A stretch of 64,000 nucleotides of DNA. Source: a virus. Under the pieces are notes generated by a model that did not search any database, had not been told where the DNA came from, and was given only the letters and a program-made list of their open reading frames with translations. The stretch lies in the IMG/VR virus record IMGVR_UViG_3300029404_000062; one strand, 5' to 3'. This document shows positions 9,394-58,737 of this stretch, one piece after another. The position numbers and the translations under genes are program-made. Position 1 is the stretch's first letter. Every line of letters starts with the position of its first letter.

Positions 9394-9403
9394 GTACTTC
9401 CTC

Positions 9404-11653: not shown

Positions 11654-11665
11654 TTCGCCGCCTCC

Positions 11666-18210: not shown

Positions 18211-18367
18211 TCCTTTCTGCCCGTTTCTTCCTTTGGGCAGTCACATATTCCCTCTGTTTCGTGATATTATCAAGTTTTATCGGCGCAGAAAGACGGAGAA
18301 ATACCGCTCCGATTATTGTTCTATCTGCACGATATGTACCCCACCCTTGGCGGGTGGGGAGGTCTTA

Positions 18368-36453: not shown

Positions 36454-37851
36454 TTACTTGTAAAGGTCTTCCAGCGTTATCAGCCGAACTTCACCTCGCT
36501 CTTGTGCCTGAAGAAGTCCATCTGTGAATCCGCCTTTCGAGAAGATATAGTAGTGATAGTTGTTGCCCTTTCCAAAAACTGAAGCATAATCCCGAATCAA
36601 ATCGAGTTCATCCACACCGATTTTCTCATTCCGGTATTTGCATGAACCGATGATATAGTCTTTGCCCTCAACAGGAGTTCCGACGATATCAATCTGTATC
36701 TGCTTTTTCTTCTTCGGGTCTGTCCCCCACCACTGGCCGATTTCACTCAGCTCAATAGGAAGGCTATCCGAATAATAGAGCAGGTAATCCTGACACATCT
36801 TCTCATAAATTAGACCCATGTAATCAGGAAGATACTGCTTTACAGCGTGTGGATAGGTCTTTGCAATTCTGCCAGAGTCAATGGCACTCATATTGATTGG
36901 CACAAACCGATACCAGAAACGGAAGAAGTTATCAGCCAGCAGATAGATGGTTTTCTTACCCGGTTTTTCTGTAATCGGTGTTTCTTTCTTCGCAATGCCA
37001 AGGTCGATCAGCGTTTTCAGGTACTTCGATACGACCGAGTTTTCCTCGCCGACCTTCATCTTGATATCGTTCATTCGGGAAGCACCTTCTGCAATCGCTT
37101 TAATGATTGCATTATAAATGGCCGGCTCCCGGAGTTCCTGCTTCAGTAAGTTCCCCGGTTCCTCATACAGATAGCTGGAGCGGTCAAAGAAATTATCCAA
37201 CAGAGCTTCATCCACACTATCTCGCACATCCAACTTATTGATATAGTGGGGAACTCCTCCCGTGATTCCATAAATCAGGGAATTGTCTTCTGCAGACAGA
37301 TTTGGGTGGAACACAGCGGTTTCTTTATAGTCTAGCGGCTCAATCTTAAACTGTCCAGTACGTCTGCCATACAACGGACTTTCCTTTCCAAGCACCTGAC
37401 TCTCCATGAAGCTCATAGAGGAGCCGCAAAGAATCAGGTACATCTTGGACTCTGTCCATTTGTGGTCGATGATGTGCTGCAGCATCGCTGAAATAGCTGG
37501 TTTTGCTTTTGCAAGATAAGGATACTCATCAATGACAAAGACAATCCTCTTTTCCTTTGAAAGTGCTGTCAGCTCATCCAAAGCTGCATCATAGGACCTG
37601 AACTCCGGTGCAGACTCCATATCCGGCCGCTCAAAACTCATAATCGACTTTGAGAGAGCTTCCAGATTTTCCTTTCCTGTCGTGTTCAATGCAGAAAAGA
37701 AAATGGTAGGCTTATCTTTGCAGAACTCGTTGATCAGTGCCGTTTTACCAACACGCCGTCTGCCGTAGATGACAATGCACTCAAACTTATCACCTGCATA
37801 CCGTTTATTCAGTTTCCGCAGCTCATCCTCACGGCAATAGAATTGACTCAT
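36454..37851 (-). CDS. AAA+ ATPase of the COG1672 type (Arch_ATPase domain + C-terminal DUF234, predicted nuclease-like). Low-GC moron inserted between the tail chaperones and the TMP.
   Basis: Walker A GRRRVGKTAL, Walker B VFVIDEYPYL. ~44% GC against ~57% in flanking phage genes. Own promoter and terminator. Confidence 0.7.
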   Translation of the reverse strand: MSQFYCREDELRKLNKRYAGDKFECIVIYGRRRVGKTALINEFCKDKPTIFFSALNTTGKENLEALSKSIMSFERPDMESAPEFRSYDAALDELTALSKEKRIVFVIDEYPYLAKAKPAISAMLQHIIDHKWTESKMYLILCGSSMSFMESQVLGKESPLYGRRTGQFKIEPLDYKETAVFHPNLSAEDNSLIYGITGGVPHYINKLDVRDSVDEALLDNFFDRSSYLYEEPGNLLKQELREPAIYNAIIKAIAEGASRMNDIKMKVGEENSVVSKYLKTLIDLGIAKKETPITEKPGKKTIYLLADNFFRFWYRFVPINMSAIDSGRIAKTYPHAVKQYLPDYMGLIYEKMCQDYLLYYSDSLPIELSEIGQWWGTDPKKKKQIQIDIVGTPVEGKDYIIGSCKYRNEKIGVDELDLIRDYASVFGKGNNYHYYIFSKGGFTDGLLQAQERGEVRLITLEDLYK

Positions 37852-46930: not shown

Positions 46931-47415
46931 CAGCTTCCACCTCCTCCCAGCAGATTCTCCATCTCATCAGCTGCATCCGCAGGACCGCCGTCCGAAGCAA
47001 TGATCCGGCTTCGGGAGGACGGGGTCAGACCGAACTGCTCTGCAAACTTGTTCATGATCTTCAGATAGGTCTGGGCGATGGACACCTGCGGCACCTGCTG
47101 CCAGTACCCGGACGGGGTCTTGACGATAGTGCCGTGCTGGGTGATGAACTCCTCTGCCTCCTTCCATCGGGCATACGCCTGACAGTAACCGGCAAAGGCC
47201 GCCATGTCCACTTCGGTCAGGATGCCGATGGCTTCCATCTGTTTGGCAAGTCTACGCCACTCTTTCTTTGCTTCCGGCTCCAGCCACTTCGGACAGGCCG
47301 GTGCTTTCTTATTGGGCTTCGGTTCGCTGGTGTTCAGCGGATGCTTGCCCGGATTACCTTCCAGTTCCTTCATGGCGGTCGGCTTTGGTTTTCTGCCTCT
47401 GGTAGCCATTGGCAT
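46930..47415 (-). CDS. Terminase small subunit (P27-family-like).
   Basis: Basic N-terminus MATRGRKPKPTAMKELEGNPGKH, typical of P27-family TerS; adjacent to TerL with overlapping stop/start. Confidence 0.7.
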   Translation of the reverse strand: MPMATRGRKPKPTAMKELEGNPGKHPLNTSEPKPNKKAPACPKWLEPEAKKEWRRLAKQMEAIGILTEVDMAAFAGYCQAYARWKEAEEFITQHGTIVKTPSGYWQQVPQVSIAQTYLKIMNKFAEQFGLTPSSRSRIIASDGGPADAADEMENLLGGGGS

Positions 47416-47600
47416 CTCCTCCTTTCTACAAAAATGGGTAAAGAAAAAGGACCTCCAAAGAAGTCCTTAAAATATCATTTTCCCAAACAGGAAACTTTTC
47501 TGCATAACTAACAAATAGTTTCCCATTTCGGCAACTTTATATAAAACACATCGGATACGAGGCACAGCCCCTTTTCAGGGCGTGTACCTTTTGGGTGCTG

Positions 47601-47978
47601 TTAGGCGTTGGGGTTGGCTTCCTTCCAAGCCTCGTATTCATCGACCAGCTCCGCTTCCTCGATGACCTGCCAGACGCTGCAGAAGCGGCTTCTCTGCTGC
47701 TCGATCTCCGCTTCCGTCCAGTCTTCCGGCTTGCGGCTCATGTCGTGGTAGGCATCCATCTCCGCTTTCGTCCGGAAGAAAAGGATCTGCTTCAGCTTCA
47801 GCGTTTCCTCGTTATTCCGCAGGCTGTACCGCTTGTCTTCTGCCGCCCTGCAAAGGCTTCCGAGATCGTTGCAGCTGAGGGTCATGTCCTGCTTGAAGGC
47901 GATCTCAATGCCGATCAGCTTCTTCTCGGTGTCAGCTTCCTGAATGTTCTTAAGGTAGGTTTTTGCTTTGTTCGTCAT
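47601..47978 (-). CDS. Hypothetical phage protein.
   Basis: Start MTNKAKTYLKN preceded by promoter cassette copy 1. Confidence 0.4.
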   Translation of the reverse strand: MTNKAKTYLKNIQEADTEKKLIGIEIAFKQDMTLSCNDLGSLCRAAEDKRYSLRNNEETLKLKQILFFRTKAEMDAYHDMSRKPEDWTEAEIEQQRSRFCSVWQVIEEAELVDEYEAWKEANPNA

Positions 47979-48004
47979 GGTCTGTATCCTCCGTGTGTTT
48001 TGTT

Positions 48005-48090
48005 TTCCGTAGGGCTTTTCCCTTCGTTGTGACTGTATATTACCGTCACTGCCCGGACATAGCAAGCGGCTATGCTGCACGATCATACAC
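48005..48090 (-). repeat. Promoter/leader cassette copy 1 (conserved ~80 bp: upstream box GATCGTGCAGTATAGCCGCTTGCTAT, -35 TTGCTA, 17-nt spacer, -10 TAATAT/TATAT, leader ...ACCGAAAGGG..., RBS).
   Basis: Aligns with copies at 48488, 49150, 49772, 50438, 50762, 54898, 56328. Confidence 0.6.
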
Positions 48091-48177
48091 ACCCCTTTTT
48101 GTCGGATTTATGTGTATTTACACGCCGGAGAAATCCGCCACTACGAGCAAAAGCCCCCGAAGGAGCTCTGCCTTTTT

Positions 48178-48462
48178 TCAGTGTGCGTTCCTGATGCACC
48201 ACTCGATCGCGTGACCGGCATCCGTGTAGGTCTCATCGGAAATCTTCAGAAGCTCCAATCGGCACTCAATCGGTGACCAGCCTTCCTCCGGGTCTTCCAC
48301 AAAGCCGTATACCGCTCCCTCCAGCATGCCGTTCCAGTTCATCTGGGCAACCAGAACCCTGTCACCGAACTGCATGATGCTGTCGTAGCAAGGTCTGAGT
48401 CGGTCGTAGAAGCTCTCGATGCTGATGTTGTTTTCTGGGAAATTAATCAAATGCTTTTTCAT
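48178..48462 (-). CDS. Hypothetical small protein (94 aa).
   Basis: ORF behind cassette copy 2. Confidence 0.4.
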   Translation of the reverse strand: MKKHLINFPENNISIESFYDRLRPCYDSIMQFGDRVLVAQMNWNGMLEGAVYGFVEDPEEGWSPIECRLELLKISDETYTDAGHAIEWCIRNAH

Positions 48463-48487
48463 GGTAAAATCCTCCGTGTTTTCGTTT

Positions 48488-48572
48488 TTCCCTTGGGGCT
48501 TTCCCCTTTCGGTATGTGCATATTACCGTCAGGTGCAAAGGATAGCAAGCGGCTATACTGCACGATCATCTT
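48488..48572 (-). repeat. Promoter/leader cassette copy 2.
   Basis: CCTTGGGGCTTTCCCCTTTCGGTATGTGCATATTACCGTCAGGTGCAAAGGATAGCAAGCGGCTATACTGCACGATCAT. Confidence 0.6.
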
Positions 48573-48597
48573 CCCAGAATACCGGGCAGAATGTACA

Positions 48598-48813
48598 TTA
48601 CTCTGCATTTTCGGCATCCTGCTCCATGAGGTCTACGATGGTATCGTAGAAGAATTGCGGGTCGTAGGCCAGCGGCTCCCGGCCGGCTTCCTTATCCATC
48701 CTGATCTGGTCTGCTACCATGTCCTCGGCATCCTCCAGCGTGAAGGCATCCTTATCGCTGTCATCCATGTGATTGTAGATTTCCACGATGACATCCATCA
48801 TCCGTTCTTCCAT
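48598..48813 (-). CDS. Hypothetical acidic small protein.
   Basis: ORF 48598-48879; internal start MEERMM chosen. Confidence 0.35.
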   Translation of the reverse strand: MEERMMDVIVEIYNHMDDSDKDAFTLEDAEDMVADQIRMDKEAGREPLAYDPQFFYDTIVDLMEQDAENAE

Positions 48814-48941
48814 GTGCTTTTCCTTTCTGGGGCATCCACGCCGCCACATCTTCCCCTGTGTGGGGCGTTGTCGCTTCATTCGGATCGTTTTGCCACCCGT
48901 GGCACAAGCCCCTGTGTGGGGCTGTGTCGGGGGCTGTCGGT

Positions 48942-49133
48942 TTATCTGTTCATCCGTCCCAGCAGGTAGGCTTCCTCCATTGCTTTCTGGATGCCCCAGA
49001 CCGGAACCTCAATGAAGTCCTCGCTGTCATTGTCGCGGGCTTCGAGGTCGCCCCGGCTGTCTACCGCTGCCATCAGGCGCTTGGCGATTTCCAGCAGGGC
49101 TTTTTCTTCTTCCTTGGTAATGTTCTTCTTCAT
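48942..49133 (-). CDS. Hypothetical small protein (63 aa).
   Basis: Behind cassette copy 3. Confidence 0.35.
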   Translation of the reverse strand: MKKNITKEEEKALLEIAKRLMAAVDSRGDLEARDNDSEDFIEVPVWGIQKAMEEAYLLGRMNR

Positions 49134-49149
49134 GGTGGTTTCCTCCGTT

Positions 49150-49232
49150 TTTCTTGGTTTTCCGTTTCGGTATGTGCATATTACCGTCTATGTCACACAC
49201 TATCAAGCGGCTATACTACACAAAGATAGCCG
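49150..49232 (-). repeat. Promoter/leader cassette copy 3.
   Basis: TTTCGGTATGTGCATATTACCGTCTATGTCACACACTATCAAGCGGCTATACTACAC. Confidence 0.55.
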
Positions 49233-49297
49233 CCCGGAACTGTGCGTATTACAGCAGAAGAAAAGGGCTGCCGGCAAGCCCCATGTGTTTCTCTGGC

Positions 49298-49747
49298 TTA
49301 GTAGTCTTCTTCGTCCTCGTAATCTTCCTCTTCGTCCCAGTCATCTTCCTCTTCATCCCAGCTGTCATCCTGGTCTTCTTCCTCATCCTTGAAGTCCCAC
49401 ATATCTTCGGTCGGCTGGTTTCTAAGGTCTGGGTTCTGCTCAACATAGTCGGCAACCGCTCCGCAAAGGATGTCCAGAACCTTTTCGTAGGCTTCCTCAC
49501 TGTAGACTGCCCAGGCATCTGCAGTCAGCTTTGCGATTTTGTCGTTGCCCTTGGCTCCAAGGAACCGCCCTGCAGGGTTGCAGGTTTCCTTGCCGTAGCC
49601 GATGCCCAGCTGGTCGCCGTCGTTGTAAAAGCGGTATCCGATGCGGCTCATTGCCCTTACCAGCTCCCCTGCGAGGCTGTCTGCCTTGCCCGTATCCGGT
49701 ACCAGTTCCTTGAAAAGTTTATTGATGCGGTCTTCATTCTTCGTCAT
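49298..49747 (-). CDS. Hypothetical protein with extremely acidic C-terminal tail (DWDEEEDYEDEEDY). Candidate DNA-mimic/anti-restriction-like.
   Basis: Start MTKNEDRINK behind cassette copy 4. Last ~45 residues are >60% Asp/Glu. Confidence 0.4.
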   Translation of the reverse strand: MTKNEDRINKLFKELVPDTGKADSLAGELVRAMSRIGYRFYNDGDQLGIGYGKETCNPAGRFLGAKGNDKIAKLTADAWAVYSEEAYEKVLDILCGAVADYVEQNPDLRNQPTEDMWDFKDEEEDQDDSWDEEEDDWDEEEDYEDEEDY

Positions 49748-49771
49748 TGTCGTATCCTCCGTTTTTGTTGT

Positions 49772-49848
49772 TTTCCCCTTTCGGTGACTGTATATTACCG
49801 TCACCTCGAAACACTATCAAGCGGCTAAACTACACGATCATTCAATCC
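49772..49848 (-). repeat. Promoter/leader cassette copy 4.
   Basis: CCCTTTCGGTGACTGTATATTACCGTCACCTCGAAACACTATCAAGCGGCTAAACTACACGATCAT. Confidence 0.55.
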
Positions 49849-49949
49849 TGTAATTGTCATATTTATGTGCTTTTCATGCCAGCTTTCGGAAGACAGACAC
49901 GAGCAAAAGGCTGGTCATTTCCAGCCCCTTGCGCCTGTCGGTCTTGCCT

Positions 49950-50210
49950 TTAGCGGATGATTTCGAGGTAGCTTACGTTGCCCCAGCAGTCCGTTCCCTT
50001 GAAGCGGATGCGCTTGTCGTTCTCCCTGTCGAGGGTGAATTTCCGAAGGAGCTTCATCTTCTGGATGCGGTTCAGAAGGTCCTTGCCGTTCTTCGCATCC
50101 TCAACGGCATCCCTGATCTCGACCACCGCACTGTCGCTTCCGTACCAGAGGTTGCTGAGTGCCTCTGGAATTCCGTTTGCAAGATAAAGGTTGATTTTTG
50201 TGTAGGTCAT
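49950..50210 (-). CDS. Hypothetical small protein (86 aa).
   Basis: Co-transcribed with 50226-50432. Confidence 0.35.
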   Translation of the reverse strand: MTYTKINLYLANGIPEALSNLWYGSDSAVVEIRDAVEDAKNGKDLLNRIQKMKLLRKFTLDRENDKRIRFKGTDCWGNVSYLEIIR

Positions 50211-50225
50211 GTTTTTGTTCTCCTC

Positions 50226-50432
50226 TCAAAATGTCATCGTTTCCAGAATCTCATCCATGCCTGCCTCCCAGTCATGGCGGCTAAATTCAATTTTGCTGTA
50301 CATCTCTGCGCTGTCCGGCTCATCGAAAAGCCGGAAGCATTCTCTTGCCAGCTCCTCGCTGGTATGCTGCTGGATTTCATCCGGCTGTCCATCCAGCCGT
50401 GTAAAGGTGATCTCGTAAGTGTAGCGTTCCAT
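50226..50432 (-). CDS. Hypothetical small protein (68 aa).
   Basis: Behind cassette copy 5. Confidence 0.35.
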   Translation of the reverse strand: MERYTYEITFTRLDGQPDEIQQHTSEELARECFRLFDEPDSAEMYSKIEFSRHDWEAGMDEILETMTF

Positions 50433-50437
50433 GTTCT

Positions 50438-50518
50438 TTGCCCCTTTCGTTTTGGTAGCTGTATATTACCGTCACTGCCGGATACTATCAAGCGGCTAAA
50501 GTACACGATCATCTGCCC
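50438..50518 (-). repeat. Promoter/leader cassette copy 5.
   Basis: TTTTGGTAGCTGTATATTACCGTCACTGCCGGATACTATCAAGCGGCTAAAGTACACGATCAT. Confidence 0.55.
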
Positions 50519-50571
50519 CCTGATCTGGAGGATTTATGTGTTTATCCGGGGAGGTTTCCCTCCCCGTTTTC

Positions 50572-50748
50572 TTAGCTGAACATCTCTGCCGTGTCATCGT
50601 CGATCCAAAGGTGCATGCCGTCTGCTTCCATAATCGCATGGTCTTCATGAACCTCGGTGATGATTCCTTCCCGGCTTCCTCTTCCATCAAATTCGTTCCA
50701 GTGCCATGTTGTCTTTCTTCCCTTTTTCCATGTTCTCCAATCAGCCAT
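50572..50748 (-). CDS. Hypothetical small protein (58 aa).
   Basis: Start MADWRTWKKG with RBS GGAGG, behind cassette copy 6. Confidence 0.35.
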   Translation of the reverse strand: MADWRTWKKGRKTTWHWNEFDGRGSREGIITEVHEDHAIMEADGMHLWIDDDTAEMFS

Positions 50749-50761
50749 TCTCCTGTCCTCC

Positions 50762-50842
50762 TTTGCTTTTTGTAGCTGTATATTACCGTCACCGCCCTGT
50801 GATAGCAAGGCCATAAAACGTCATATTATCAACGATCTTTGC
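50762..50842 (-). repeat. Promoter/leader cassette copy 6 (more diverged).
   Basis: TTTTTGTAGCTGTATATTACCGTCACCGCCCTGTGATAGCAAGGCCATAAAACGTCAT. Confidence 0.45.
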
Positions 50843-50958
50843 CCCTCATGTTTGGTACATATATGACCCCTGATTGACTTGCTATATATGTGTTTCTGCG
50901 GCATTATACACACAACGAAAGCAAAGAAAAACCAAACCAAAAACGGAGGACAAAAACC

Positions 50959-51210
50959 ATGAAAAAGACCATTACAGAAGTTGAAACCGCAATCGAAAAC
51001 CGCATCGCAGAGCTTGAAGAAGAATACGAGCTGGACATTTACGACCGCAACGACATCCGGGAAGAAGAATACCAGAAAGCCGGATGGCGGCACGACCCTT
51101 TCCCAGAGGAGCTTGAGGAAGAGGACGAAGAAGAGGAAGAAGATTGGCACTACCACAGCATGGAAGAACGACTGAACGAGGTCGGCATGAGCATGAGGGA
51201 TTTCTTCTAA
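50959..51210 (+). CDS. Small acidic protein (83 aa). Only plus-strand gene in this arm.
   Basis: Start MKKTITEVE after RBS AACGGAGGA. EEEDEEEEEDW acidic stretch; own promoter TTGACT...; followed by a hairpin terminator. Confidence 0.45.
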   Translation: MKKTITEVETAIENRIAELEEEYELDIYDRNDIREEEYQKAGWRHDPFPEELEEEDEEEEEDWHYHSMEERLNEVGMSMRDFF

Positions 51211-51214
51211 GGAA

Positions 51215-51262
51215 TCCCAAAAGGCTCCCCCAGCAGAAGCTGGGGCTCTGCCTCGTATCCCC
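51215..51262. terminator. Bidirectional terminator hairpin between convergent genes.
   Basis: CCCCCAGC-AGAA-GCTGGGGG stem-loop with flanking T/G-rich runs. Confidence 0.45.
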
Positions 51263-51409
51263 CGTTTTGGTTTGGTATGATACACAAAACCGCTGCCAGA
51301 TATTTGTGTACATTATGGCGGCGGTTCTTCTTGCTATCGTTGCTTTATAGAGGTAACATACAGTAAACTGGAAGGGGGTTCTCATTCTTTTGAGGCCCCC
51401 ATTTTCCGT

Positions 51410-51601
51410 CTAATCGGCTTCGCCCTGCATTGCCTGATGCATCACCCTGCGGTTATGCGCCCTGGCTTTCTTTTTCAGGTCTCTTTTCCATCTGCGGATG
51501 GTCACCGCCTTGCAGTGGTTTCTCGACCATTCGTATTCATCCAGAATGTATCTGCCGCCGTGTTCCCTCTCGCCATAAGCCGGCATCTTTCTGTGTCCCA
51601 T
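51410..51601 (-). CDS. Hypothetical small basic protein (63 aa).
   Basis: ORF only. Confidence 0.3.
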   Translation of the reverse strand: MGHRKMPAYGEREHGGRYILDEYEWSRNHCKAVTIRRWKRDLKKKARAHNRRVMHQAMQGEAD

Positions 51602-51672
51602 AGGCCCCTCCTGTTAAACCAAGCCCTCCCGGTCTTTTCTGGCCGAGAGGGTATTTTTCTGATTGTGGTATC

Positions 51673-52044
51673 TTATTCCGGCTTCGTTCCGTCATCCATC
51701 TGGATGACTGCCATCTGCCCGAACATGCTGACGAATGCCTCCGGCACCCAGAAACGTTCCCTGAATTTCCTGAGCAGGTCCTGGGGCAGCTCTGCGAAAT
51801 CTTCCTCGCCCAATCCGCAGATGAAGAAGTTTCCCTTGATGGGCTGCTCCAGTTCCGGGATGTATCTGCTGAACAACTTCTCGGTGAACAGACCGTTGTC
51901 ATCGGTGACCAGGGCGGCGCGTTCTTCCCACGGGTAGGTGGCTGTGATGCAGTCGCAGTTGAGGATGCGGTAGAACTCTTGCAGGGAGTTTTCAATATCC
52001 ACCACCTGCGGATGCTCCATCGGTTTGATCAGAAGAACTTTCAT
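51673..52044 (-). CDS. DUF3846-like hypothetical protein.
   Basis: MKVLLIKPMEHPQVVDIENSLQEFYRILNCD resembles the DUF3846 family common in phage/ICE accessory regions. Start overlaps the upstream stop (ATGA). Confidence 0.35.
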   Translation of the reverse strand: MKVLLIKPMEHPQVVDIENSLQEFYRILNCDCITATYPWEERAALVTDDNGLFTEKLFSRYIPELEQPIKGNFFICGLGEEDFAELPQDLLRKFRERFWVPEAFVSMFGQMAVIQMDDGTKPE

Positions 52045-52508
52045 TCGACCCAGCCCCCTTTCACGATTGCCCAGTCTGCAAGCTGCATCTTCTGCTGTCC
52101 GCCCCATGCAATATCCTCTAACGCTTCCTCCGTTCCGCAGCGGTTGCAGATCTGAATGTCCGCCCTTCGACTGAGTGCCTGCTGCTGATGGGCGTAGCAG
52201 TCAGGATTTGCTCCGCACCTGGGGCAACGTGGTCCGGTCTGTCGCGTTTTTCCAAGCCGGTCGAGCGACACCTTGACCTCGGCATCCGTTGCCACACGGT
52301 GGCAACTGTCCGCGCCGTAGGAAATGTTCAGATGGCTTCCGGTGTCCCAGCTCACTAAGATGTTTCCGGCATCATCAACCCCGTTGCAGGTTCCCTGCGT
52401 TCCGATGGGCGGTGCCTGCCTGTCATCCATCTCATCGAGGATGATCCGGCATCCGACCGGGAACTCTTTTCTCAACTTCTTGACCATTTTCTGATCTGCG
52501 AAATTCAT
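52041..52508 (-). CDS. DUF4314-like protein with C-terminal zinc-ribbon.
   Basis: VGCRIILDEMDDRQAPPIGTQGTCNGVDDAGNILVSWDTGSHLNISYGADSCHRV (DUF4314-like) plus CPRCG...CNRCG. Confidence 0.45.
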   Translation of the reverse strand: MNFADQKMVKKLRKEFPVGCRIILDEMDDRQAPPIGTQGTCNGVDDAGNILVSWDTGSHLNISYGADSCHRVATDAEVKVSLDRLGKTRQTGPRCPRCGANPDCYAHQQQALSRRADIQICNRCGTEEALEDIAWGGQQKMQLADWAIVKGGWVE

Positions 52509-52984
52509 GACTGCACCTCCCCGATCATCTTCTGGGCGGCATCCTTATCCATGCATTCCTTCAGCGCACCTTCGAGGATGTGCATCGGGAAGTGGAATGC
52601 CTTGTAGCCGTCATGCAGAACTTTGTAGTAATACCGGCTCGGTGCGCGGTGCCCGAAGTCGTTTTCCATGATGTAGACCATTGCGGTCACCATCTCCGGC
52701 TCTGCCCCTTCCCGGAGCAGTTCAATGTTCAGATCTTCCTTGCGGTAGTAGTTCGGGTAGCCCTCATAGAGGTCGAGGTTTCCTTCGTCCCTTTCCGAGA
52801 TCTCCCACACCAGAACCGGCGTGTTCTTCTTCGGGTTCGGTGCGATGGTGGCGCAGCCGCGGAACAAAAGCTCCCAGCCGGCCAGCACCGCCTGCCCTGC
52901 AATTTTTGCATCCGGGCATCGGTCTGCCATCTGCTCCACCGACAGGTTGCTGCCGTAGGCGATGTAATATTTCTTGTTCTTCAT
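52505..52984 (-). CDS. Gamma-glutamyl cyclotransferase-like (GGCT/AIG2-fold) protein 1.
   Basis: YYIAYGSNLSVEQMADRCPDAKIAG... matches the GGCT signature YxAYGSNL. Start MKNKKYY. Confidence 0.65.
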   Translation of the reverse strand: MKNKKYYIAYGSNLSVEQMADRCPDAKIAGQAVLAGWELLFRGCATIAPNPKKNTPVLVWEISERDEGNLDLYEGYPNYYRKEDLNIELLREGAEPEMVTAMVYIMENDFGHRAPSRYYYKVLHDGYKAFHFPMHILEGALKECMDKDAAQKMIGEVQS

Positions 52985-53114
52985 TTGAATCTCTCCCTTC
53001 GGTTTTCTCCGCTCTTGTCTGGCGGTATGGTATATATCACTCTTTTGCCCTGATTTATCAAGGCCGATGAGCATCATATACTGCACAGTGTTTTTTTCCT
53101 GTGATCGTGTACTC

Positions 53115-53636
53115 TTACATCATCTGCCGCTTCTTCAGATACCGGATGGCTTCCGCCCTTCCGATGCTGGCTGCCAGTCCACGCTTCAGTGTGTCCAGCG
53201 GAAATTCCCAGTCGCTGTATCCGCCACGCAGCAGTTCAAAATACTCGGCATCCGGGCAGCCAAGCCTCCGATCCTCGTGCATCACATAAGCGATGCATGG
53301 CTTTGCCTTTTTCATGCGGTTCCCGTTCAGGTTCCAGACCGGAAGCTGGAACTGCTTCTTATAATAGTATCTTGGGCAGCCTTCGTATCGGTCTAGCAGG
53401 AGCTCATCGTATTCCGAGAGCTTCCAGACCACCGCCGGTACGCTTTCATTGGCATCCTGCTCGATGGTGGCATAGCAGCCGGTCTTACTCTTTTTGAACA
53501 GGAGCCGGTAGCCCATGATCTCGGTCGTGCCGACCACCACAGCGTAAGGGCATCTCTTTCCCATCCGTTCCATGTCGAGGTTGCTTCCGTAGGCAAGGTA
53601 ATATCTGGATGGGTTTCGGCTGATCAGTTCAAACAT
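53115..53636 (-). CDS. Gamma-glutamyl cyclotransferase-like (GGCT/AIG2-fold) protein 2, paralog of the preceding gene.
   Basis: RYYLAYGSNLDMERMGKRCPYAVVVG...; start MFELISRN. Confidence 0.65.
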   Translation of the reverse strand: MFELISRNPSRYYLAYGSNLDMERMGKRCPYAVVVGTTEIMGYRLLFKKSKTGCYATIEQDANESVPAVVWKLSEYDELLLDRYEGCPRYYYKKQFQLPVWNLNGNRMKKAKPCIAYVMHEDRRLGCPDAEYFELLRGGYSDWEFPLDTLKRGLAASIGRAEAIRYLKKRQMM

Positions 53637-53865
53637 CTGCCTCACCGTCCTCCCTGCCAGTGAACTCCACGCCCTGGAAATCCTCTTTCCCAAGCTCGAT
53701 CTGGCTGTCCCGCCACCAGTCCTCTGCCACACGCTGGGCTTCCTCCACGGTCGGCTCTTTCATCTCGGATTCATAAATGGTCACCGTCCTCTGGTAGGTC
53801 TCGGTGATGATCACCTTAAAGGCTCTGCCGCCCGGTGTGTTTTCATTTTTTAACGTGCTTTTCAT
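53629..53865 (-). CDS. DpnD/PcfM-like small protein.
   Basis: 78 aa; FKVIITETYQRTVTIYESEMKEPTVEEAQRVAEDWW pattern typical of the DpnD/PcfM family seen in conjugative/phage accessory regions. Confidence 0.4.
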   Translation of the reverse strand: MKSTLKNENTPGGRAFKVIITETYQRTVTIYESEMKEPTVEEAQRVAEDWWRDSQIELGKEDFQGVEFTGREDGEADV

Positions 53866-53932
53866 AAACCTGCACCTCCTTCTACCACCTCAAGGGCGGT
53901 TGCCCGCCCAAAAGGTGCCCGTGCATCCCGGC

Positions 53933-54868
53933 TTATTTGTTCCGCCAGGATGCGTTGCCCTCCATGTTCCGCAGAAGGATCTCCCTTGCCGTTGCAAATT
54001 CATCCCCGATGAATCCCAGCCTCAGCATCCAGCACCGCATCGCGTACTTTTCGTTGTCGGTCTGCTGGGGCTTCGGGCTTGCCGTCCTGACCATCTTGGC
54101 AAGCTGGCTCATTGCGAGGCAAAGCTGGATGTAGGCTTTCATCTCACCGGCATGCAGTCCGTTGCGCTTTCCGTCCGCTGGGTCTGCAAATTGGAAAAGG
54201 CGGAATTCAATGGTTCCTTTTGTAAAGGTGGCATGAAGGTTCAGCATATGGTATCGGCTTGAATTGTAATGCTGGCTTCTGCCGTAGTCTGCACCGTTAC
54301 CTTCGTACCAGATGTCTTCCAGCCTGTGCATGGTGGTCGGCTTCTCGCGGTTCAGCCGGTCGAGGAAGCGGTGGTTGACCACCTGGCAATAATGTCCGGT
54401 GCGCCCCGCGTCGATCCGGATGGCTCTGCCGATCTGCTGTTCGTGCGCCGCCATGATGTTCACAAGGTTGCGGATGGTCTTTGCGGTGTGGTCGCCTTTG
54501 CCAATGTGAATGTGGACTCCGCATCCGCGGCTTGGGCTGCTCTTTGCGCCTGCCTTGCGGAGCAGTCGGATAATTTCCTGCAGGGGTTCGATGTCGTCGT
54601 AGGTGAGGATCGGGGTGACCAGTTCGCATTTTTCTGCGTCCGGTCCGTAGATGCTCACATCCCTCTGGAATTTCCAAACCCTGCCCTGTCCGTCCTTGCA
54701 AGCCCAGCTGTAATATCCGTACTCGCTGGCCGCGTTCCATGCTCTGGTTCCGAAGTACTCGGCGACCTTTCTTGCCGCTTTTTCTCTGGTGATGTTGTTC
54801 ATCTCGATCTCAACTCCGATGGTCTGGTTCTTCATGGCTTCAATCTGCTCTCTTGTTTTATCGTTCAT
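53933..54868 (-). CDS. Amidoligase (glutamine-synthetase/GCS-like carboxylate-amine ligase, Amidoligase_2 family).
   Basis: Metal-binding GVEIEM (ExE), CGVHIHIG (HxH), and TIEFRLFQ (E-x-R) motifs in the order expected for the GS-like amidoligase fold. Start MNDKTREQ behind cassette copy 7. Confidence 0.6.
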   Translation of the reverse strand: MNDKTREQIEAMKNQTIGVEIEMNNITREKAARKVAEYFGTRAWNAASEYGYYSWACKDGQGRVWKFQRDVSIYGPDAEKCELVTPILTYDDIEPLQEIIRLLRKAGAKSSPSRGCGVHIHIGKGDHTAKTIRNLVNIMAAHEQQIGRAIRIDAGRTGHYCQVVNHRFLDRLNREKPTTMHRLEDIWYEGNGADYGRSQHYNSSRYHMLNLHATFTKGTIEFRLFQFADPADGKRNGLHAGEMKAYIQLCLAMSQLAKMVRTASPKPQQTDNEKYAMRCWMLRLGFIGDEFATAREILLRNMEGNASWRNK

Positions 54869-54897
54869 GGTATGTTCTCCTTTGTTTTTTCCTTGTT

Positions 54898-54996
54898 TTC
54901 CCTTTCGGTATGTGCATATTACCGTCAGGTGCGGATAATAGCAAGGATATAAAAGAACATATATTCGACAAATATCGAGAGGAATGATCGTGTACA
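54898..54996 (-). repeat. Promoter/leader cassette copy 7.
   Basis: CCCTTTCGGTATGTGCATATTACCGTCAGGTGCGGATAATAGCAAGGATAT...GATCGTGTACAT. Confidence 0.5.
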
Positions 54997-55100
54997 TTTC
55001 TGCAGTTTATCCGCTTGATAATGTACATTTTCAGAGTTAATATCGTTACAATGAAAGAGGGTCTCGCATATTTTCCGTCCCCCATTGGGAGCTTGGGAGC

Positions 55101-56285
55101 TTACGCTCCCGCCTCCAGCATCTGCGCCGTGTCTGCCCCACAGTCGGGCTGTGTCGGCTCGGCATCTGCTGATGCGATCGTTTCCCCTGCGGAGGCACTG
55201 CCCTCCTGTGCCGCCTGTTTCGCGGCTTTCAGGGCATCCCGTTTTGCCTTTTCCCTTGCGAGGAACTTCTGTGCTTCCTCATCCGTGCGGAAAGCCGCAT
55301 GGCCGGAAAGATTCTCCATGAGGATCTTGCGTGTTTCTTTGAAGTCCGGACCGTTCATCCCCAGCCGCAGGAGCCATGTGCGGAGTGCGTATTTCTCATT
55401 CTCATCGTTGACATCCTTTGCCTGGATGCGCTTCTGGCTGATCGCCTGCTGGTTCATCAGCACCGCCAGCTGTGCAAAAGCCGTCAGGTGTTCGTGGTCC
55501 GGTGCGGTCGGGAAGCCGGTAAAGGTGACCTTCTCGGTGGTGATTTTCAGGCCTTCCAGTGCAGCACCATGTTCAGTCTCATAGTCGCTTACCGCGTTGA
55601 TGAAGTTCATGATGGCAAAGGTGCAGCTATCGTCTTTCAGCTTCTCCACCAGTCCCTCTTCCACATGGAAGTTTCCGCCAGTCGCCTTGCCGATGAGCTT
55701 GCCGCGGCTGTAAAGAAGGTTGACCAGGTTGCGGAGAGTCACACCGTTGTGCTGGCTGACCGGGAATGCAAGTTCCAAGTCCAGCGGCACCTCTTCCGGC
55801 TGATCTTCTGTCTCCTGCGATTCTGCATCCGGCTCATCCTCTATGGTATCATCCTCAGCCGTATTGTCCGGCTCCAATGCATCCTCGGCTCCTGCTTCCG
55901 CAGGTTCATCTTCTGCGGTATCTGCATCTTCGGATTCCTGCTCGTCCAGAACCTCCAGCTCTGCTTCGGGCATCTGCTCAGTTTCCGCTTCGGTCACAGG
56001 CTCCTCATCCATATCCGCTGTCAGCTCTGTGTCCTCCGGCTGGTCATCCGTGCTCTCAATACTCTCGCCGCCGCGGATCAGTCCCTCATTCAGCAGGGTC
56101 GTCAGCAGCTCGGCATCTGCATTCTCCGGCTCGACCAGAAGGTTGCCATTCCGGTCGATGGTGTAGCTCCCGATGTCGTAAGAATACAGAGGTGCTTTGG
56201 TATAGTAAGGGTGGATGCCGGTCAGCTCCTCCATGCGTTTTGCGAGGGTCTTTCTCTCGGCTACGTTCAGTTTAAATTTCAACAT
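55101..56285 (-). CDS. Degenerate amidoligase paralog: retains the C-terminal half but lacks the catalytic N-terminal motifs; carries a ~120-aa hyper-acidic insert.
   Basis: C-terminus EKYALRTWLLRLGMNGPDFKETRKILMENLSGHAAFRT aligns with the amidoligase's EKYAMRCWMLRLGFIGDEFATAREILLRNMEGNASWRN; TLRNLVNLL vs TIRNLVNIM. Region 70-190 is D/E-rich (TDDQPEDTELTADMDEEPVTEAETEQ...). Confidence 0.5.
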   Translation of the reverse strand: MLKFKLNVAERKTLAKRMEELTGIHPYYTKAPLYSYDIGSYTIDRNGNLLVEPENADAELLTTLLNEGLIRGGESIESTDDQPEDTELTADMDEEPVTEAETEQMPEAELEVLDEQESEDADTAEDEPAEAGAEDALEPDNTAEDDTIEDEPDAESQETEDQPEEVPLDLELAFPVSQHNGVTLRNLVNLLYSRGKLIGKATGGNFHVEEGLVEKLKDDSCTFAIMNFINAVSDYETEHGAALEGLKITTEKVTFTGFPTAPDHEHLTAFAQLAVLMNQQAISQKRIQAKDVNDENEKYALRTWLLRLGMNGPDFKETRKILMENLSGHAAFRTDEEAQKFLAREKAKRDALKAAKQAAQEGSASAGETIASADAEPTQPDCGADTAQMLEAGA

Positions 56286-56327
56286 AATTCATCGCTCCTT
56301 TTCGTTCATTTGTTTTTGTGCATCCCG

Positions 56328-56398
56328 ATGTTCTTTTCGGTAGCACATATATCACTCTAAAACGGATGAATAGCAAGGCCATTTCCCGATATTCTTCA
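56328..56398 (-). repeat. Promoter/leader cassette copy 8 (diverged).
   Basis: CTTTTCGGTAGCACATATATCACTCTAAAACGGATGAATAGCAAGGCC. Confidence 0.4.
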
Positions 56399-56508
56399 TG
56401 TTCGACCATTTACACAAGGGACCGCAAAATCTGTTGTGTAAATAGGACCAATATGTAAGCCCACCATATCACCAGGTCGCTTTCTACCTAGTAATATAGC
56501 GGGCCAGT

Positions 56509-58737
56509 TTATTCTTCCAGACCTGCACACCACGCGATGCCGGCCAGAACGAAGTAAACACAGGGCAGTGCCACGCCGTTGCCCCAGAGTTTGTACTCTG
56601 CCGCATCCGAATACGGGTCAGCCAGCCATTTGCGGATCTGTTTCTCTGTCTTTGGTTTCTTCGCCTGCGTCACGATCCTGCGGTGTGTTTCAAACACATC
56701 TGCCCAGAATGCCAGCTCTTCATCGGTCGGATTCTCCGCGCCGAGGTCACTGCACCACCAGTCCGGAAAGCCCTGCAACCGGGCGCATTCGATTGGTGTC
56801 AGTCGGCGGACTGTGTAGCTGACATCCTGCGGCACCGGTGCAATGGTGGTCGGGTCTTTGTAGTCCCGTGCCATCAAGGTCGGCGCAACCTCTTTCTCCA
56901 CCTGCATATAGGAGCCGGTAGTCATGGCATAGACGCTTTCCGGGACACAGACTGCATGGCGGTCAGTGGCATCCAGCGTGAAGCAGACATCCTCATTAAC
57001 CCCGTCCCCCTGCGGGCCGTTCTCGTCCTTGCGGCCGATCATGTTGCCCTGCAGCACAAAGGTCTGCATCTGGTCGCTCCGGGTCGCCATGAGTGCGCCG
57101 GACTTTCCATGCAGGTCGATCAGCTCATTGCGCTGATTTACGTGGAATGCGGTCACATCTTCCGGCTGTGCCACGAAGGTCTGCTGCTTCATCCCCGGCT
57201 CTGCTGCCAGTGCTGCTGACTTATCTCCCAGATCCCAGACTTCATCCCGCTGATTCTGGGTAAAAGCCACTGCCGGTGCGCCGCCGTGGGTACAGGACAA
57301 AGGCGGTGCCACCTGTTCGTCCACCGTGCAGTTCGACTTTCCGCCACCCTGATCCACGCAGACAACAGGTTCACAGATGCACAGCCCTCCCTGATTGCAG
57401 GTCGGGTCACCACCGCTGCGGTCGAGTGTCCGAGAGGTGCTGGCTTCATAGAAACCACTGTGCGGATTGTCACTCATCATGGAGTGGCTTGCCTTGGAGC
57501 AGACACCGTAGGCTTTCAGAACGAACAGCGTCTGGTCATTGTTGCAGCCCAGAGTTGCCGATTTTTCCTCTTGCCAGATCGCGCCCTTTCCGCCTCCATC
57601 ACATCCAGAGCGGATCTTCAGTGTGACCGCCGGGGAGTTTTCAACATCTTTCACCAGGCTTTCCACAGAGTTTTCAACTCCCATGACCAGCGGAACATTG
57701 CCGCCGCCTGTACCGCACCGGCTGGTCAGCGTCTGCACCTTGCCATCCTCGGAAATCTTCACCCGGCTGTCCGCAGGATGATTTTCCAGTGCAATGGCGG
57801 CCGGAACCACACCGGCCCGGAGTGTCGGTGAGCGTTCTTCCTCGTACCCGATGCTTCTGGCATTGGCGGAGTGTTCAGTGCAGAAGCCTGCCGCCTCCAT
57901 AACGCAGGGTGGATGCCCATGATCCTCTGCCCGGAGCGTCCCGGTCACTTCATGGGATACATCCATCTGTGCTCCACCCTGATCATTCAAGACGATTCTT
58001 CCGTTTCCACAGCCTGTCTCTCCAATGCTTCTTTCAGCACAGGCGGCAGCTCTTTGCCACGCACGGAAGCTCTCCGCAGAATACCGAGACACGCCTTCGG
58101 ACTCAAATAATATTTCTTTGGCACCCCGACCTGCAAAATCTGCGACAAGGAAGATTCGTTTTCTTCTTTGGGGTACGCCCCACCACTGTGCATCAAGGAC
58201 TCGATATGCGACGCTCCATCCGTCTCCCAGATAGTAGTCGGCATCGGGCCAGCCTTTTTTCGCAGGCGCAGGCACCTCGGCGGCCGGTTCTTTAACACCG
58301 ATGACGGCTTCGAGGACTGCTTTGAAGTCCTGCCCTTTGTTGGAGGAGAAAGCTCCCGGCACATTTTCCCACACGATGAATCGCGGTTGTTTTCCATTGG
58401 TTGCACACCTCATTTCCTTCACGATTCGGATTGCTTCATAAAACAGGCTGGACCGTGAACCATCCAGACCATCTCGTTTCCCGGCGATAGACATATCCTG
58501 GCATGGACTGCCAAAGGTGATGATGTCCACGGGCGGCAGGTCTGCGCCGCTGATGGCAGACACATTTCCGTAGTGTTTCATCTGGGGCAGCCGCTTCGTT
58601 GTTACCCGGATGGCGAACGGCTCCACCTCACTGCTCCAGACAGGCTCGATTCCAGCAAGCATTCCACCCAACGGAAAACCCCCGGAGCCATCGAAGAGGC
58701 TGCCGAGGGTCAAAGTCTTATTCTGTTCTTTGCTCAT
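56509..58737 (-). CDS. DNA (cytosine-5)-methyltransferase, 742 aa with a very long target-recognition region (multispecific phage-type).
   Basis: Motif I LFDGSGG, motif IV GSPCQDMS, motif VI ENV. ~450-aa insert between catalytic motifs and motif IX/X. Confidence 0.85.
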   Translation of the reverse strand: MSKEQNKTLTLGSLFDGSGGFPLGGMLAGIEPVWSSEVEPFAIRVTTKRLPQMKHYGNVSAISGADLPPVDIITFGSPCQDMSIAGKRDGLDGSRSSLFYEAIRIVKEMRCATNGKQPRFIVWENVPGAFSSNKGQDFKAVLEAVIGVKEPAAEVPAPAKKGWPDADYYLGDGWSVAYRVLDAQWWGVPQRRKRIFLVADFAGRGAKEILFESEGVSRYSAESFRAWQRAAACAERSIGETGCGNGRIVLNDQGGAQMDVSHEVTGTLRAEDHGHPPCVMEAAGFCTEHSANARSIGYEEERSPTLRAGVVPAAIALENHPADSRVKISEDGKVQTLTSRCGTGGGNVPLVMGVENSVESLVKDVENSPAVTLKIRSGCDGGGKGAIWQEEKSATLGCNNDQTLFVLKAYGVCSKASHSMMSDNPHSGFYEASTSRTLDRSGGDPTCNQGGLCICEPVVCVDQGGGKSNCTVDEQVAPPLSCTHGGAPAVAFTQNQRDEVWDLGDKSAALAAEPGMKQQTFVAQPEDVTAFHVNQRNELIDLHGKSGALMATRSDQMQTFVLQGNMIGRKDENGPQGDGVNEDVCFTLDATDRHAVCVPESVYAMTTGSYMQVEKEVAPTLMARDYKDPTTIAPVPQDVSYTVRRLTPIECARLQGFPDWWCSDLGAENPTDEELAFWADVFETHRRIVTQAKKPKTEKQIRKWLADPYSDAAEYKLWGNGVALPCVYFVLAGIAWCAGLEE

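Follow-up and report, generated by a model that had tools for sequence, protein, structure and literature searches.

Morons, as the concept of Hendrix and Juhala has it, are extra genes that lambdoid and other temperate phages carry among the genes of the phage backbone: they have their own promoter and often their own terminator, they are present in some relatives and absent from others, and they are usually solitary, with promoters that are unrelated to each other. In T4-type phages, a "mobile regulatory cassette" called the promoter-early stem-loop (PeSL) has been described (Arbiol et al. 2010, PMC2839356; Comeau et al. 2014, PMC4122927). PeSLs are sigma-70-like repeats ending in a Shine-Dalgarno sequence and a start codon, they occur upstream of ORFans in hyperplastic regions, and both promoter and terminator activity as well as excised mini-circles have been demonstrated for them; recombination between the copies is the proposed driver of indels and replacements (PMC2839356, PMC4122927). 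The lytic Bacillus phage SPO1 has in its terminal redundancy a host-takeover module with demonstrated early timing and host shutoff, a 12-kb arm of small genes in many short operons whose promoters and ribosome binding sites (RBSs) are of the kind found at highly expressed genes (Stewart et al. 1998, according to PMC6873191). Finally, the leading regions of plasmids contain anti-defence islands with repeated dedicated promoters (Frpo) on DNA that presumably becomes active first in a new host (Samuel et al. 2024, PMC11541004). Here, we describe an array of repeated promoter-leader cassettes in 64,000 nucleotides of the IMG/VR virus record IMGVR_UViG_3300029404_000062; this whole stretch is referred to as the window. 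The idea of a reused promoter cassette is not new, and by analogy the T4-type PeSL is the closest match in kind (PMC2839356, PMC4122927). We consider it probable that the cassettes are double-stranded promoters of the host sigma-A type, each with a leader and an RBS, which at the same time recombine with each other as homologous substrates.

The repeat family was first found by direct-repeat search, pattern search and a 12-way alignment. An nhmmer profile made from this alignment identifies 12 copies of the cassette in the window, with E values from 1e-17 to 1e-9. The module comprises about 80-110 bp of predicted promoter and leader, and all copies are confined to positions 48,018-56,410 (approximately 8.4 kb); the remaining 55 kb or so of the window contain no further convincing copy, the next-best profile match having an E value of 0.17. 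Moreover, the pattern CTTGMTA-N17-TRAYAT has nine exact matches in the window as compared to 0.00 expected from 100 shuffles. Nine of the cassettes read in the direction of the minus strand, on which nearly all genes of the window are encoded, and three in the direction of the plus strand. The copies are as follows:

56286-56415 (core 56330-56410), minus strand: cassette 1, the most diverged minus-strand copy, with TTGCTA-17-TGATAT, leader and RBS; nhmmer E=9.5e-10
54977-55060 (core 54982-55060), plus strand: orphan cassette, with the box ATGATCGTG followed by TTGATA-17-TAATAT; nhmmer E=6.4e-12, exact pattern match
54869-54981 (core 54896-54976), minus strand: amidoligase cassette; nhmmer E=4.1e-17
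52985-53096 (core 53014-53091), minus strand: cassette with TTGATA-16/17-TGATAT; nhmmer E=2.3e-10
51293-51405 (core 51298-51378), plus strand: orphan cassette with TTGCTA-17-TAACAT; nhmmer E=7e-14
50842-50958 (core 50847-50927), plus strand: plus-strand cassette with a gene, TTGCTA-17-CATTAT; nhmmer E=3.8e-13
50749-50845 (core 50761-50840), minus strand: cassette; nhmmer E=8.3e-17
50433-50519 (core 50444-50514), minus strand: cassette; nhmmer E=4.2e-16
49748-49847 (core 49772-49842), minus strand: cassette; nhmmer E=1.9e-16
49134-49233 (core 49158-49228), minus strand: cassette; nhmmer E=9.1e-15
48463-48575 (core 48500-48570), minus strand: reference copy; nhmmer E=1.3e-17
47979-48092 (core 48018-48087), minus strand: last cassette, toward terS; nhmmer E=1.4e-13

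Two of the plus-strand copies are arranged back to back with a minus-strand copy (54982-55060 with 54896-54976, and 50847-50927 with 50761-50840), and in both pairs 70 nt separate the -35 hexamers. A previous reading of the letters by themselves (the sequence-only reading) had proposed eight copies that each drive one or two small genes. All eight are found where it had placed them, on the minus strand and with a promoter-like organization; the total, however, is 12 rather than eight, as the minus-strand copy 53014-53091 and the plus-strand copies 50847-50927, 51298-51378 and 54982-55060 had been missed. Likewise, six units do consist of one or two small genes, but the cassette 53014-53091 is apparently followed by four genes and 54896-54976 by three, the gene behind 56330-56410 encodes a protein of 394 amino acids (aa), and two of the plus-strand copies have no gene. 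One additional site may be a diverged thirteenth cassette:

18201-18340, minus strand: possible diverged copy, weak profile matches (E=0.17 and 0.05)

Here, a box-like ATATCGTGCAGATAG is located about 45 nt upstream of TTGATA (18273-18268), which is followed after 17 nt by GAATAT (18250-18245), the leader GTGACTGCCCAAAGGAAG, an RBS, and at 18201 the ATG of the first large serine recombinase gene.

From the window and 150 related loci, 682 copies were collected, anchored, and reduced to 431 distinct sequences. The information content of these sequences is near maximal on the two hexamers TTG(C/A)TA and GGTAATAT and near zero at most of the 17 positions between them; the ACC-GAAAGG-AAAA stretch after the -10 hexamer, which is part of a purine-rich leader, has an intermediate information content. 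The -10 hexamer is TAATAT in 84% of the distinct copies and never TATAAT, and it is directly preceded by GG in 370 of the 431. For contrast, an unrelated consensus promoter elsewhere in the window reads TTGATA-17-TGcTATAAT. A Shine-Dalgarno sequence and an open reading frame (ORF) of at least 35 aa are present downstream of 480 of 538 copies, mostly 10-50 nt past the profile match. The leader would be about 35-45 nt long from the expected start to the ATG, and the conserved unit reaches approximately 40 nt into it. Since a housekeeping sigma factor requires such a pair of hexamers, 17 nt apart and in the orientation of the downstream gene, we interpret the element as a predicted promoter with its leader. 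This is the anatomy that the sequence-only reading had described (-35 TTGCTA or TTGATA, a 17-nt spacer, -10 TAATAT, a leader with ACCGAAAGGG, and an RBS), and it is seen both in the sequence and in the alignment. Other candidates were considered and discarded. A structured RNA leader is not indicated, as a search of both strands of the region 47000-57000 up to E=1 gave no Rfam match. The -10 hexamer is flanked by the arms of an inverted repeat (5 bp or more) in 45% of 244 distinct copies, as compared to 31% in a mismatched-pair and 17.5% in a shuffled control; this enrichment is too weak for a universal hairpin around the -10 hexamer. There are two classes of arms with compensating changes (GGTGAC/GTCACC versus GTTGTA/TACAAC), and many copies have neither.

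The cassette is widespread among related phages. The signature GCCGCTTGMTA-N17-TAATATRCA is present in at least 119 IMG/VR contigs, and the cassette was found in 30 bacterial genome loci (Blautia, Faecalibacterium, Ruminococcus, Lawsonibacter, Clostridium fessum, and others) that include isolates of Blautia, Faecalibacterium, Ruminococcus callidus, and C. fessum; arrays are present, for instance, in Blautia faecis DFI.3.66, Faecalibacterium intestinale CLA-AA-H281, R. callidus ATCC 27760, and C. fessum SNUG30386. Most loci contain arrays of 3-12 copies. The terL gene splits the cassette phages into two clades that are about 98% and 62% identical to the window. In both clades, the array is located just upstream of terL with methylase genes on its far side, and no copy was seen in a clearly non-phage setting; both statements refer to the loci for which flanking markers were captured. 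Copies are also present outside the two clades: Clostridium phage NatCom_42228 has two recognisable copies, and Streptococcus suis phage phiSC070807 has three, AAATGACTKGATA-N17-TAATATGTRCACAACAAAAGAAGAGGAG...ATG, in front of small genes at 20.8, 26.7 and 30.4 kb, none of them in its lysogeny and replication regions. Because of these copies outside both clades, the cassette family is, judged from its distribution, old and lineage-wide rather than the result of a recent local amplification. One of the phiSC070807 cassettes is flanked by the genes for a Doc toxin and the portal protein, and this phage (KT336321.1; L152/L153/L154) carries genes for mef/msr-type macrolide efflux, for aminoglycoside and streptothricin resistance, and for an rRNA methylase. 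A metagenome-assembled genome labelled Nanoarchaeota (L127, JAHJRD010000017.1) has one exact pattern match, no profile match and no phage marker; this match is probably due to chance or a binning artefact.

The sequence-only reading had suggested that the cassette is a portable module which promotes gene shuffling, and two lines of evidence bear on this. First, the ORFs behind the cassettes form 37 clusters, of which about 20 are apparently real and mutually unrelated protein families, so that the cassette is indeed found beside different genes in the relatives. The units also vary in presence and order: written as cluster numbers, we observe '8 6 4 3 5 0', '8 10 4 3 5 0', '6 10 4 3 5', '8 4 5 0' and '10 4 5 0', and the relative order differs in L104 ('3 ... 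4 ... 5'), L030 ('4 28 8') and L064 ('5 3'). The 86-aa gene, which is the second gene of its unit in the window, has its own cassette in other genomes, and elsewhere the 65-aa gene in front of it is exactly missing. Second, the boundaries of indels coincide with the cassettes, a signal that appears only once clean indels are isolated from the BLAST comparisons. Relative to the window, both ends lie in cassettes in 5 of 17 distinct clean indels and one end in another 7, and in an all-against-all comparison the corresponding numbers are 18 and 19 of 46; by chance, both ends would be expected in cassettes in about 4% of the cases in either comparison. The junction overlaps comprise 5-42 nt at varying positions of the cassette. 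Direct alignment revealed two hybrid cassettes. In L049, the upstream half of 50761-50840 continues into the leader of 50444-50514, with loss of the 58-aa unit; the switch point lies within the 36-nt GTGACGGTAATATACAGCTAC that both parent cassettes have in common. In L039, the upstream part of 54896-54976 is joined to the core and leader of 53014-53091, and the genes for the amidoligase, DpnD, and a GGACT protein have been removed. Some other indels end at the RBS-proximal edge of the cassette, for instance in L074, which lacks exactly the 65-aa gene. A near-identical core of 25-40 nt is common to the copies, so that they may act as substrates of homologous recombination, and such recombination would result in relatives that differ by whole units and in the order of these units. 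The identity of the cassettes is higher within a clade (0.60-0.62) than between the clades (0.545), even in front of the same gene, which is consistent with ongoing exchange or turnover among the copies. Since cassette-to-cassette deletions and hybrid cassettes are visible in the relatives, the sequence-only reading appears to have been largely right on portability and shuffling, and its suggestion to use the cassette as a handle for mining accessory genes holds as well, with units that are portable, shuffled, and found by their signature.

Short gene units that are bounded by a repeat and that are gained, lost and reordered, in a prophage with two large serine recombinases, may also bring to mind the sites of an integron-like or otherwise site-specific gene-cassette system, or a selfish repeat resembling miniature inverted-repeat transposable elements, with the promoter-like appearance being incidental. 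We regard this as very improbable: the crossovers take place at varied positions and with the overlaps of 5-42 nt that are typical of homologous exchange, the copies have neither an extended palindrome nor terminal inverted repeats, and their folds (z -3.0 to +0.2) have nothing in common. Moreover, the conservation is centred on the -35 and -10 hexamers, the orientation follows the downstream gene, and in the loci for which flanking markers were captured the copies reside in the phage arm, next to the terminase and methylase genes. Integron attC sites in particular were rejected, given the lack of a common palindrome, the variable crossover point, and the promoter-like site of each unit. No tyrosine integrase was seen in the window, the only recombinases being of the serine type.

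Upstream of the -35 hexamer, the copies are heterogeneous. The box GATCGTGCAGTATAGCCGCTTGCTAT that had been taken to be common to all of them is matched with up to three mismatches in two copies only; the exact match is in the reference copy 48463-48575. A looser box, ATGATCGTG...TAGCCGC, is present in five window copies, and the others have a version that is 10 nt longer or degenerate. In upstream class A, ATGATCGTGYAGTWTAGCCGC abuts the -35 hexamer; in class B, the box ATGATCGTG is located exactly 10 nt farther out than in class A; and a third class, mainly from the second phage clade, has TTTTCTGTAnATTTAGCCGC. The element TTTAGCCGC abutting the -35 hexamer is conserved in two of the three classes. 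Only two distances from the start of the box to the -35 hexamer are seen to any extent among the distinct copies, 21 nt in 163 and 31 nt in 78 of them; 182 of the 431 do not have the box. The difference of one helical turn hints at a protein that binds the putative box; the two spacings could equally reflect two founder lineages of copies. GATC is found within the box in 90% of the class A and 59% of the class B copies (e.g. 48567-48575 and 50511-50519), and two phage N6/N4 adenine/cytosine methylase genes adjoin the array; a methylation-sensitive promoter is conceivable. Operators of a prophage repressor were considered as well, but the lysogeny-switch region of phiSC070807 has TTGCAAC-type repeats without the cassette box, and there is thus no evidence for a prophage repressor at the cassettes.

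The upstream sequences are relevant for the idea that the cassettes define a phage-specific regulon, in which an activator encoded by the phage, or an alternative sigma factor, would bind to the box or to the extended -10 region and thereby switch on all units at once during middle or late infection; in some relatives, the packaging operon would be among them. The box at exactly 21 or 31 nt and the conserved TTTAGCCGC would be in good agreement with this idea, and so would the hexamers that are fixed in a non-consensus form (GGTAATAT in 84%, never TATAAT), the -35 sequence TGGATA of the Streptococcus and NatCom copies, the cassette directly in front of terL in clade 2, and the slightly higher similarity of the cassettes within a clade than between the clades. 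However, the best-conserved blocks are the -35 and -10 hexamers at 17 nt, which is the requirement of the housekeeping sigma factor, whereas activator-dependent late promoters usually do not have a good -35 region. In addition, more than two fifths of the distinct copies (the 182 mentioned above) do without the box, the existence of two spacings could be explained by two lineages of copies alone, the recombinase gene, too, has a cassette-like promoter in front of it, and no gene for a sigma-like protein or a known late activator was seen in the window or in annotated relatives. Taken together, we think that a dedicated regulon is unlikely.

The plus-strand copies without a gene, the orphans 51298-51378 and 54982-55060, occupy positions that are conserved in both phage clades; the antisense ORFs behind them are not conserved between the clades. 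The orphan 51293-51405 is directly followed by a GC-rich hairpin and AUUUUCC (RNA fold -22.8 kcal/mol, z=-2.65), and this hairpin is kept in other loci with different stem and loop sequences. A transcript from this orphan would be about 45 nt long or else antisense to the 63-aa gene, and the other orphan is directed antisense into the 3' end of the 394-aa gene. The orphans may have been left over from units that were deleted, they may give rise to short or antisense RNAs, or they may act as insulators. GC-rich hairpins follow most of the units, and a strict terminator scan is passed by one unit only (49282-49264, after the 149-aa gene). The array is separated from terS by the following region:

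47430-47600, minus strand: cassette-free spacer with two strong hairpins; fold -34.2 kcal/mol, z=-3.63

The second hairpin of this spacer is a terminator-like stem with a T-run (47468-47447) directly in front of the terS RBS. In clade 2, as seen in L082, the last cassette is followed by a 9-bp stem with U6 and then by the terL RBS. The terminators in front of terS in the window and terL in clade 2 are consistent with an insulation of the structural operon, and they also leave room for antitermination. The spacer (47447-47545) is in addition a hot spot of insertion, with 0.75-1.5 kb of extra DNA in several relatives.

Could the cassettes be constitutive promoters that are gated by terminators and a phage antiterminator, as in the lambda PR'/tR'/Q system? 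Promoter-terminator units such as 51293-51405 or the arrangement of cassette, terminator and terL in clade 2 would then serve to load a read-through factor. The hairpin with its U-run directly after the orphan, the stem and U6 between the last cassette and terL in L082, the strong terminator just before terS, the location of nearly all genes on one strand, and the conserved sequence on both sides of the -10 hexamer could all be understood in this way. On the other hand, no Q-like or N-like gene was identified, most cassettes are directly followed by an RBS and a gene rather than by a terminator, and the same hairpins are the 3' ends of converging minus-strand genes, so that the orphans may be leftovers of deleted units. 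We therefore judge antitermination as improbable.

The gene content and terL of the window identify it as a gut-bacterial prophage, namely that of a temperate siphophage of the Heliusvirales type. On the minus strand, genes for an S-adenosylmethionine (SAM) synthetase, an HNH protein, a zinc-finger protein, a ParB-methylase, an N6/N4 methylase, and a C5 methylase are followed by the cassette array, and then by terS (Terminase_4), terL, and the genes for the portal, protease, capsid, tape measure, tail, and lysis proteins and the two large serine recombinases. The array thus lies, as the sequence-only reading had it, in an accessory arm ahead of the terminase genes. The window terL is about 76% identical to those of Streptococcus prophages (the Javan phages, S. 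suis phiSC070807, and the phi-Ssu..._rum group) and of Clostridium phage NatCom_42228, the latter of which is classified as Ca. Heliusvirales. Prophages of the Heliusvirales type are described as belonging to the phage lineages with the widest distribution in the human gut (PMC11283538); promoters or intergenic repeats go unmentioned in the paper that defines this order (PMC11283538). The gap between the methylase genes and terS holds 17 genes in about 8.9 kb in the window as compared to three small genes between the C5 methylase gene and terS in phiSC070807. An origin from a plasmid or an integrative and conjugative element was rejected, as there is no near match in the plasmid collection and the window contains a complete set of tailed-phage genes.

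Some of the cargo genes bear on yet another explanation, i.e. Frpo/ssi-like promoters that are active on DNA entering the cell as a single strand. DUF3846, DUF4314, amidoligase and DpnD/PcfM proteins and methylases are typical of conjugative elements of the Firmicutes, and one promoter per gene is also what is found in the anti-defence islands of plasmids (PMC11541004). However, a long hairpin with the -35 and -10 hexamers inside a duplex stem is not predicted; the folds of the 12 cassettes as single-stranded DNA differ from copy to copy (z -3.0 to +0.2), so that a single-strand promoter or cruciform was rejected. With no plasmid match and with terminase, portal, capsid and tape measure genes of a tailed prophage, this explanation can hardly be upheld.

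How does the cassette compare to the systems introduced above? As in the case of the PeSLs, there is a predicted promoter, the near-invariant TTG(C/A)TA-17-TAATAT of the 431 distinct copies, that is followed by a Shine-Dalgarno sequence and a start codon; all 12 copies (12/12) are located in the arm at 48.0-56.4 kb in front of ORFans and DUFs; and indels between relatives are bounded by the motif (at both ends in 18/46 and at one end in 19/46), with hybrids. The differences concern (i) the phages, a temperate siphophage of the Firmicutes here but lytic T4-type myoviruses in the case of PeSL, (ii) the upstream sequence, which is no AT-rich element but the G+C-containing box ATGATCGTG...TAGCCGC, (iii) the stem-loop, which is integral to PeSL whereas an inverted repeat at the -10 hexamer is seen here in 45% versus 31% in the control, and (iv) the conservation for about 40 nt into the leader, the back-to-back pairs, and the gene-less copies of the cassette. 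By this analogy, the cassette is an element that would work like a PeSL without belonging to the PeSL family. The cassette units resemble morons in being present or absent among relatives, with a methylase-terS/terL backbone in common with phiSC070807; they differ from them in the use of a single promoter-leader family for all 12 copies, a family that is conserved among phages whose hosts belong to different classes, and of the hairpins that follow most units only the one at 49282-49264 meets the terminator criteria. With SPO1, the window has in common a Firmicutes phage arm that is packed with small genes in many short promoter-led units, but no single long repeated cassette and no cassette-mediated shuffling have been described for SPO1 (PMC6873191). 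The Frpo islands, finally, are similar in their clusters of small accessory or anti-defence-type genes and methylases, many of them with a repeated dedicated promoter; Frpo, however, is a folded single strand, whereas the cassettes belong to a phage, lack such a fold, and have hexamers that are not paired with a complementary arm.

According to the interpretation that we favour, each cassette would turn the gene or short operon behind it into a separate transcription unit, and together the units would fill the variable accessory arm between the methylase and terminase genes. The host sigma-A RNA polymerase would start about 6-9 nt past TAATAT, and the expression of the genes of the arm would not depend on that of the late operon and would take place early in infection, from the prophage, or both, with the strong hairpins or terminators in front of terS (or terL) insulating the structural operon from the cassette promoters. 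An exchange between direct copies would delete the intervening units and leave a hybrid cassette, and the same exchange would release a circle able to re-enter at any other copy. Several observations weigh against this interpretation. The hexamers agree with the TTGACA/TATAAT consensus at only 8-9 of the 12 positions, and a generic promoter scan of the array region yields seven sites versus 6.8 in shuffled sequences, i.e. no excess. Moreover, the fixed GGTAATAT as the -10 hexamer and the TGGATA in the -35 region of some relatives could indicate dependence on an extra factor rather than plain recognition by sigma-A. Two plus-strand copies have no gene, and a promoter that serves early accessory genes only would hardly be expected directly in front of terL, where a cassette is found in clade 2. 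With respect to recombination, the indels are partly redundant and represent about ten clearly different cassette-to-cassette events, and the raw ends of BLAST high-scoring segment pairs are not significantly enriched at the cassettes (12% versus 10%).

It is tempting to speculate that the cassette might be the docking site of a regulator conserved across Heliusvirales, either an activator at the phased upstream box or a Q-like antiterminator at the promoter-terminator units, or, in a related version, that the arm is the first DNA of the phage to enter a new host. We attach only a low probability to these ideas. If true, accessory genes and recombinase would be under the control of a single promoter type, and the same would hold for the packaging and structural operon of some lineages; and in the case of an arm that enters first, a promoter per gene would fire during entry, which would make the arm the phage counterpart of the leading regions of plasmids. 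The Phi1207.3 paper gives no virion DNA ends for this phage family.

The genes of the arm, and the cassettes behind which they lie if the predicted promoters act as proposed, are the following:

55101-56285, minus strand: 394-aa gene behind cassette 56330-56410; phrog_2443 "amidoligase enzyme"
53933-54868, minus strand: Amidoligase_2 (Pfam), 311 aa, behind cassette 54896-54976
53629-53865, minus strand: DpnD/PcfM (Pfam), behind cassette 54896-54976
53115-53636, minus strand: GGACT (Pfam), behind cassette 54896-54976
52505-52984, minus strand: GGACT (Pfam), behind cassette 53014-53091
52041-52508, minus strand: DUF4314 (Pfam), behind cassette 53014-53091
51673-52044, minus strand: DUF3846 (Pfam), behind cassette 53014-53091
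51410-51601, minus strand: 63-aa gene, probably behind cassette 53014-53091
50959-51210, plus strand: 83-aa acidic protein (isoelectric point (pI) 4.16), behind cassette 50847-50927
50572-50748, minus strand: 58-aa gene behind cassette 50761-50840
50237-50432, minus strand: 65-aa gene behind cassette 50444-50514
49950-50210, minus strand: 86-aa gene, second behind cassette 50444-50514
49298-49747, minus strand: 149-aa acidic gene (pI 4.05) behind cassette 49772-49842
48942-49133, minus strand: DUF6900 (Pfam), behind cassette 49158-49228
48598-48813, minus strand: 71-aa acidic gene, second behind cassette 49158-49228
48178-48462, minus strand: Nmad4 (Pfam), behind cassette 48500-48570
47601-47978, minus strand: 125-aa gene behind cassette 48018-48087, just upstream of terS; its family occurs in 52 loci

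Most genes of the arm are ORFans or encode DUF proteins. Pfam matches among the cassette-led genes are limited to Nmad4, DUF6900, DUF3846, DUF4314, two GGACT/AIG2 proteins, DpnD/PcfM and Amidoligase_2, and eight cassette-led ORFans have neither a Pfam nor a PHROG match; a PHROGs search of the small genes gave no match except for the 394-aa protein. A pI below 6 is predicted for 12 of the 17 proteins. The 83-aa gene is the sole plus-strand gene of the arm, and its family is associated with the cassette in 30 loci.

Further observations concern individual genes of the window. The amidoligase (53933-54868) and the acidic 394-aa protein (55101-56285) form one family in BLAST comparisons (family 1), and by eye their C-termini are similar (...NEKYA(M/L)R.W(M/L)LRLG...). 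The 394-aa protein aligns to the middle of the 801 positions of the PHROG "amidoligase enzyme" and may result from the splitting or duplication of a gene. The GC hairpin motif GCCCCACACAGGGGC (minus strand) is present in three copies, of which two (48852-48874 and 48908-48930) are located in the spacer between DUF6900 and the 71-aa gene and one (55135-55157) inside the 3' end of the 394-aa gene. Outside of the arm, a 165-aa ORF (4697-5194, minus strand) repeats the N-terminus and the upstream sequence of the gene for the 1984-aa tape measure protein (30429-36383, minus strand; VQMGFFHA...ASRIQGITVEIGGDTTKLSKALES); it adjoins an apparent host glmM-like gene (2674-4122) and may have been left behind by a prophage of this type that occupied the site earlier. 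An ATPase_2/DUF234 (STAND-like) gene (36454-37851, minus strand) between the tail genes and the tape measure gene has the look of a moron or defence-type insertion into the late operon. Downstream of the recombinases, a gene for an AAA_21 ATPase (AbiEii-like/SMC_N) with a 172-aa partner (11135-12817, minus strand) is followed by an AAA_25 gene with neighbours encoding 613 and 238 aa (6843-10453, minus strand); both groups may be defence cargo or a second small element.

What does the cassette mean for these phages? With the signature GCCGCTTGMTA-N17-TAATATRCA, or with the profile, the variable accessory arm of Heliusvirales-type phages can be located precisely, and within this arm the cassettes would mark off single genes as ready-made expression units. 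By means of the cassette, about 20 unrelated families of small proteins, many of them acidic and without a known function, were gathered from the 150 loci; as they occur beside methylases, SAM synthetase, amidoligase/GGACT and Nmad4, they are natural candidates for roles in host takeover, DNA modification, and anti-defence. The hybrid cassettes provide a concrete mechanism for the exchange of accessory genes in temperate gut phages. The PeSL idea, which comes from lytic T4-type phages with Gram-negative hosts, is thereby extended to temperate phages that infect Clostridia and streptococci, and this includes relatives of S. suis phiSC070807, which bears macrolide and aminoglycoside resistance genes. 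Current ideas are not overturned by these results; rather, they offer a practical means of access to the variable genes of a gut phage order that is very common.

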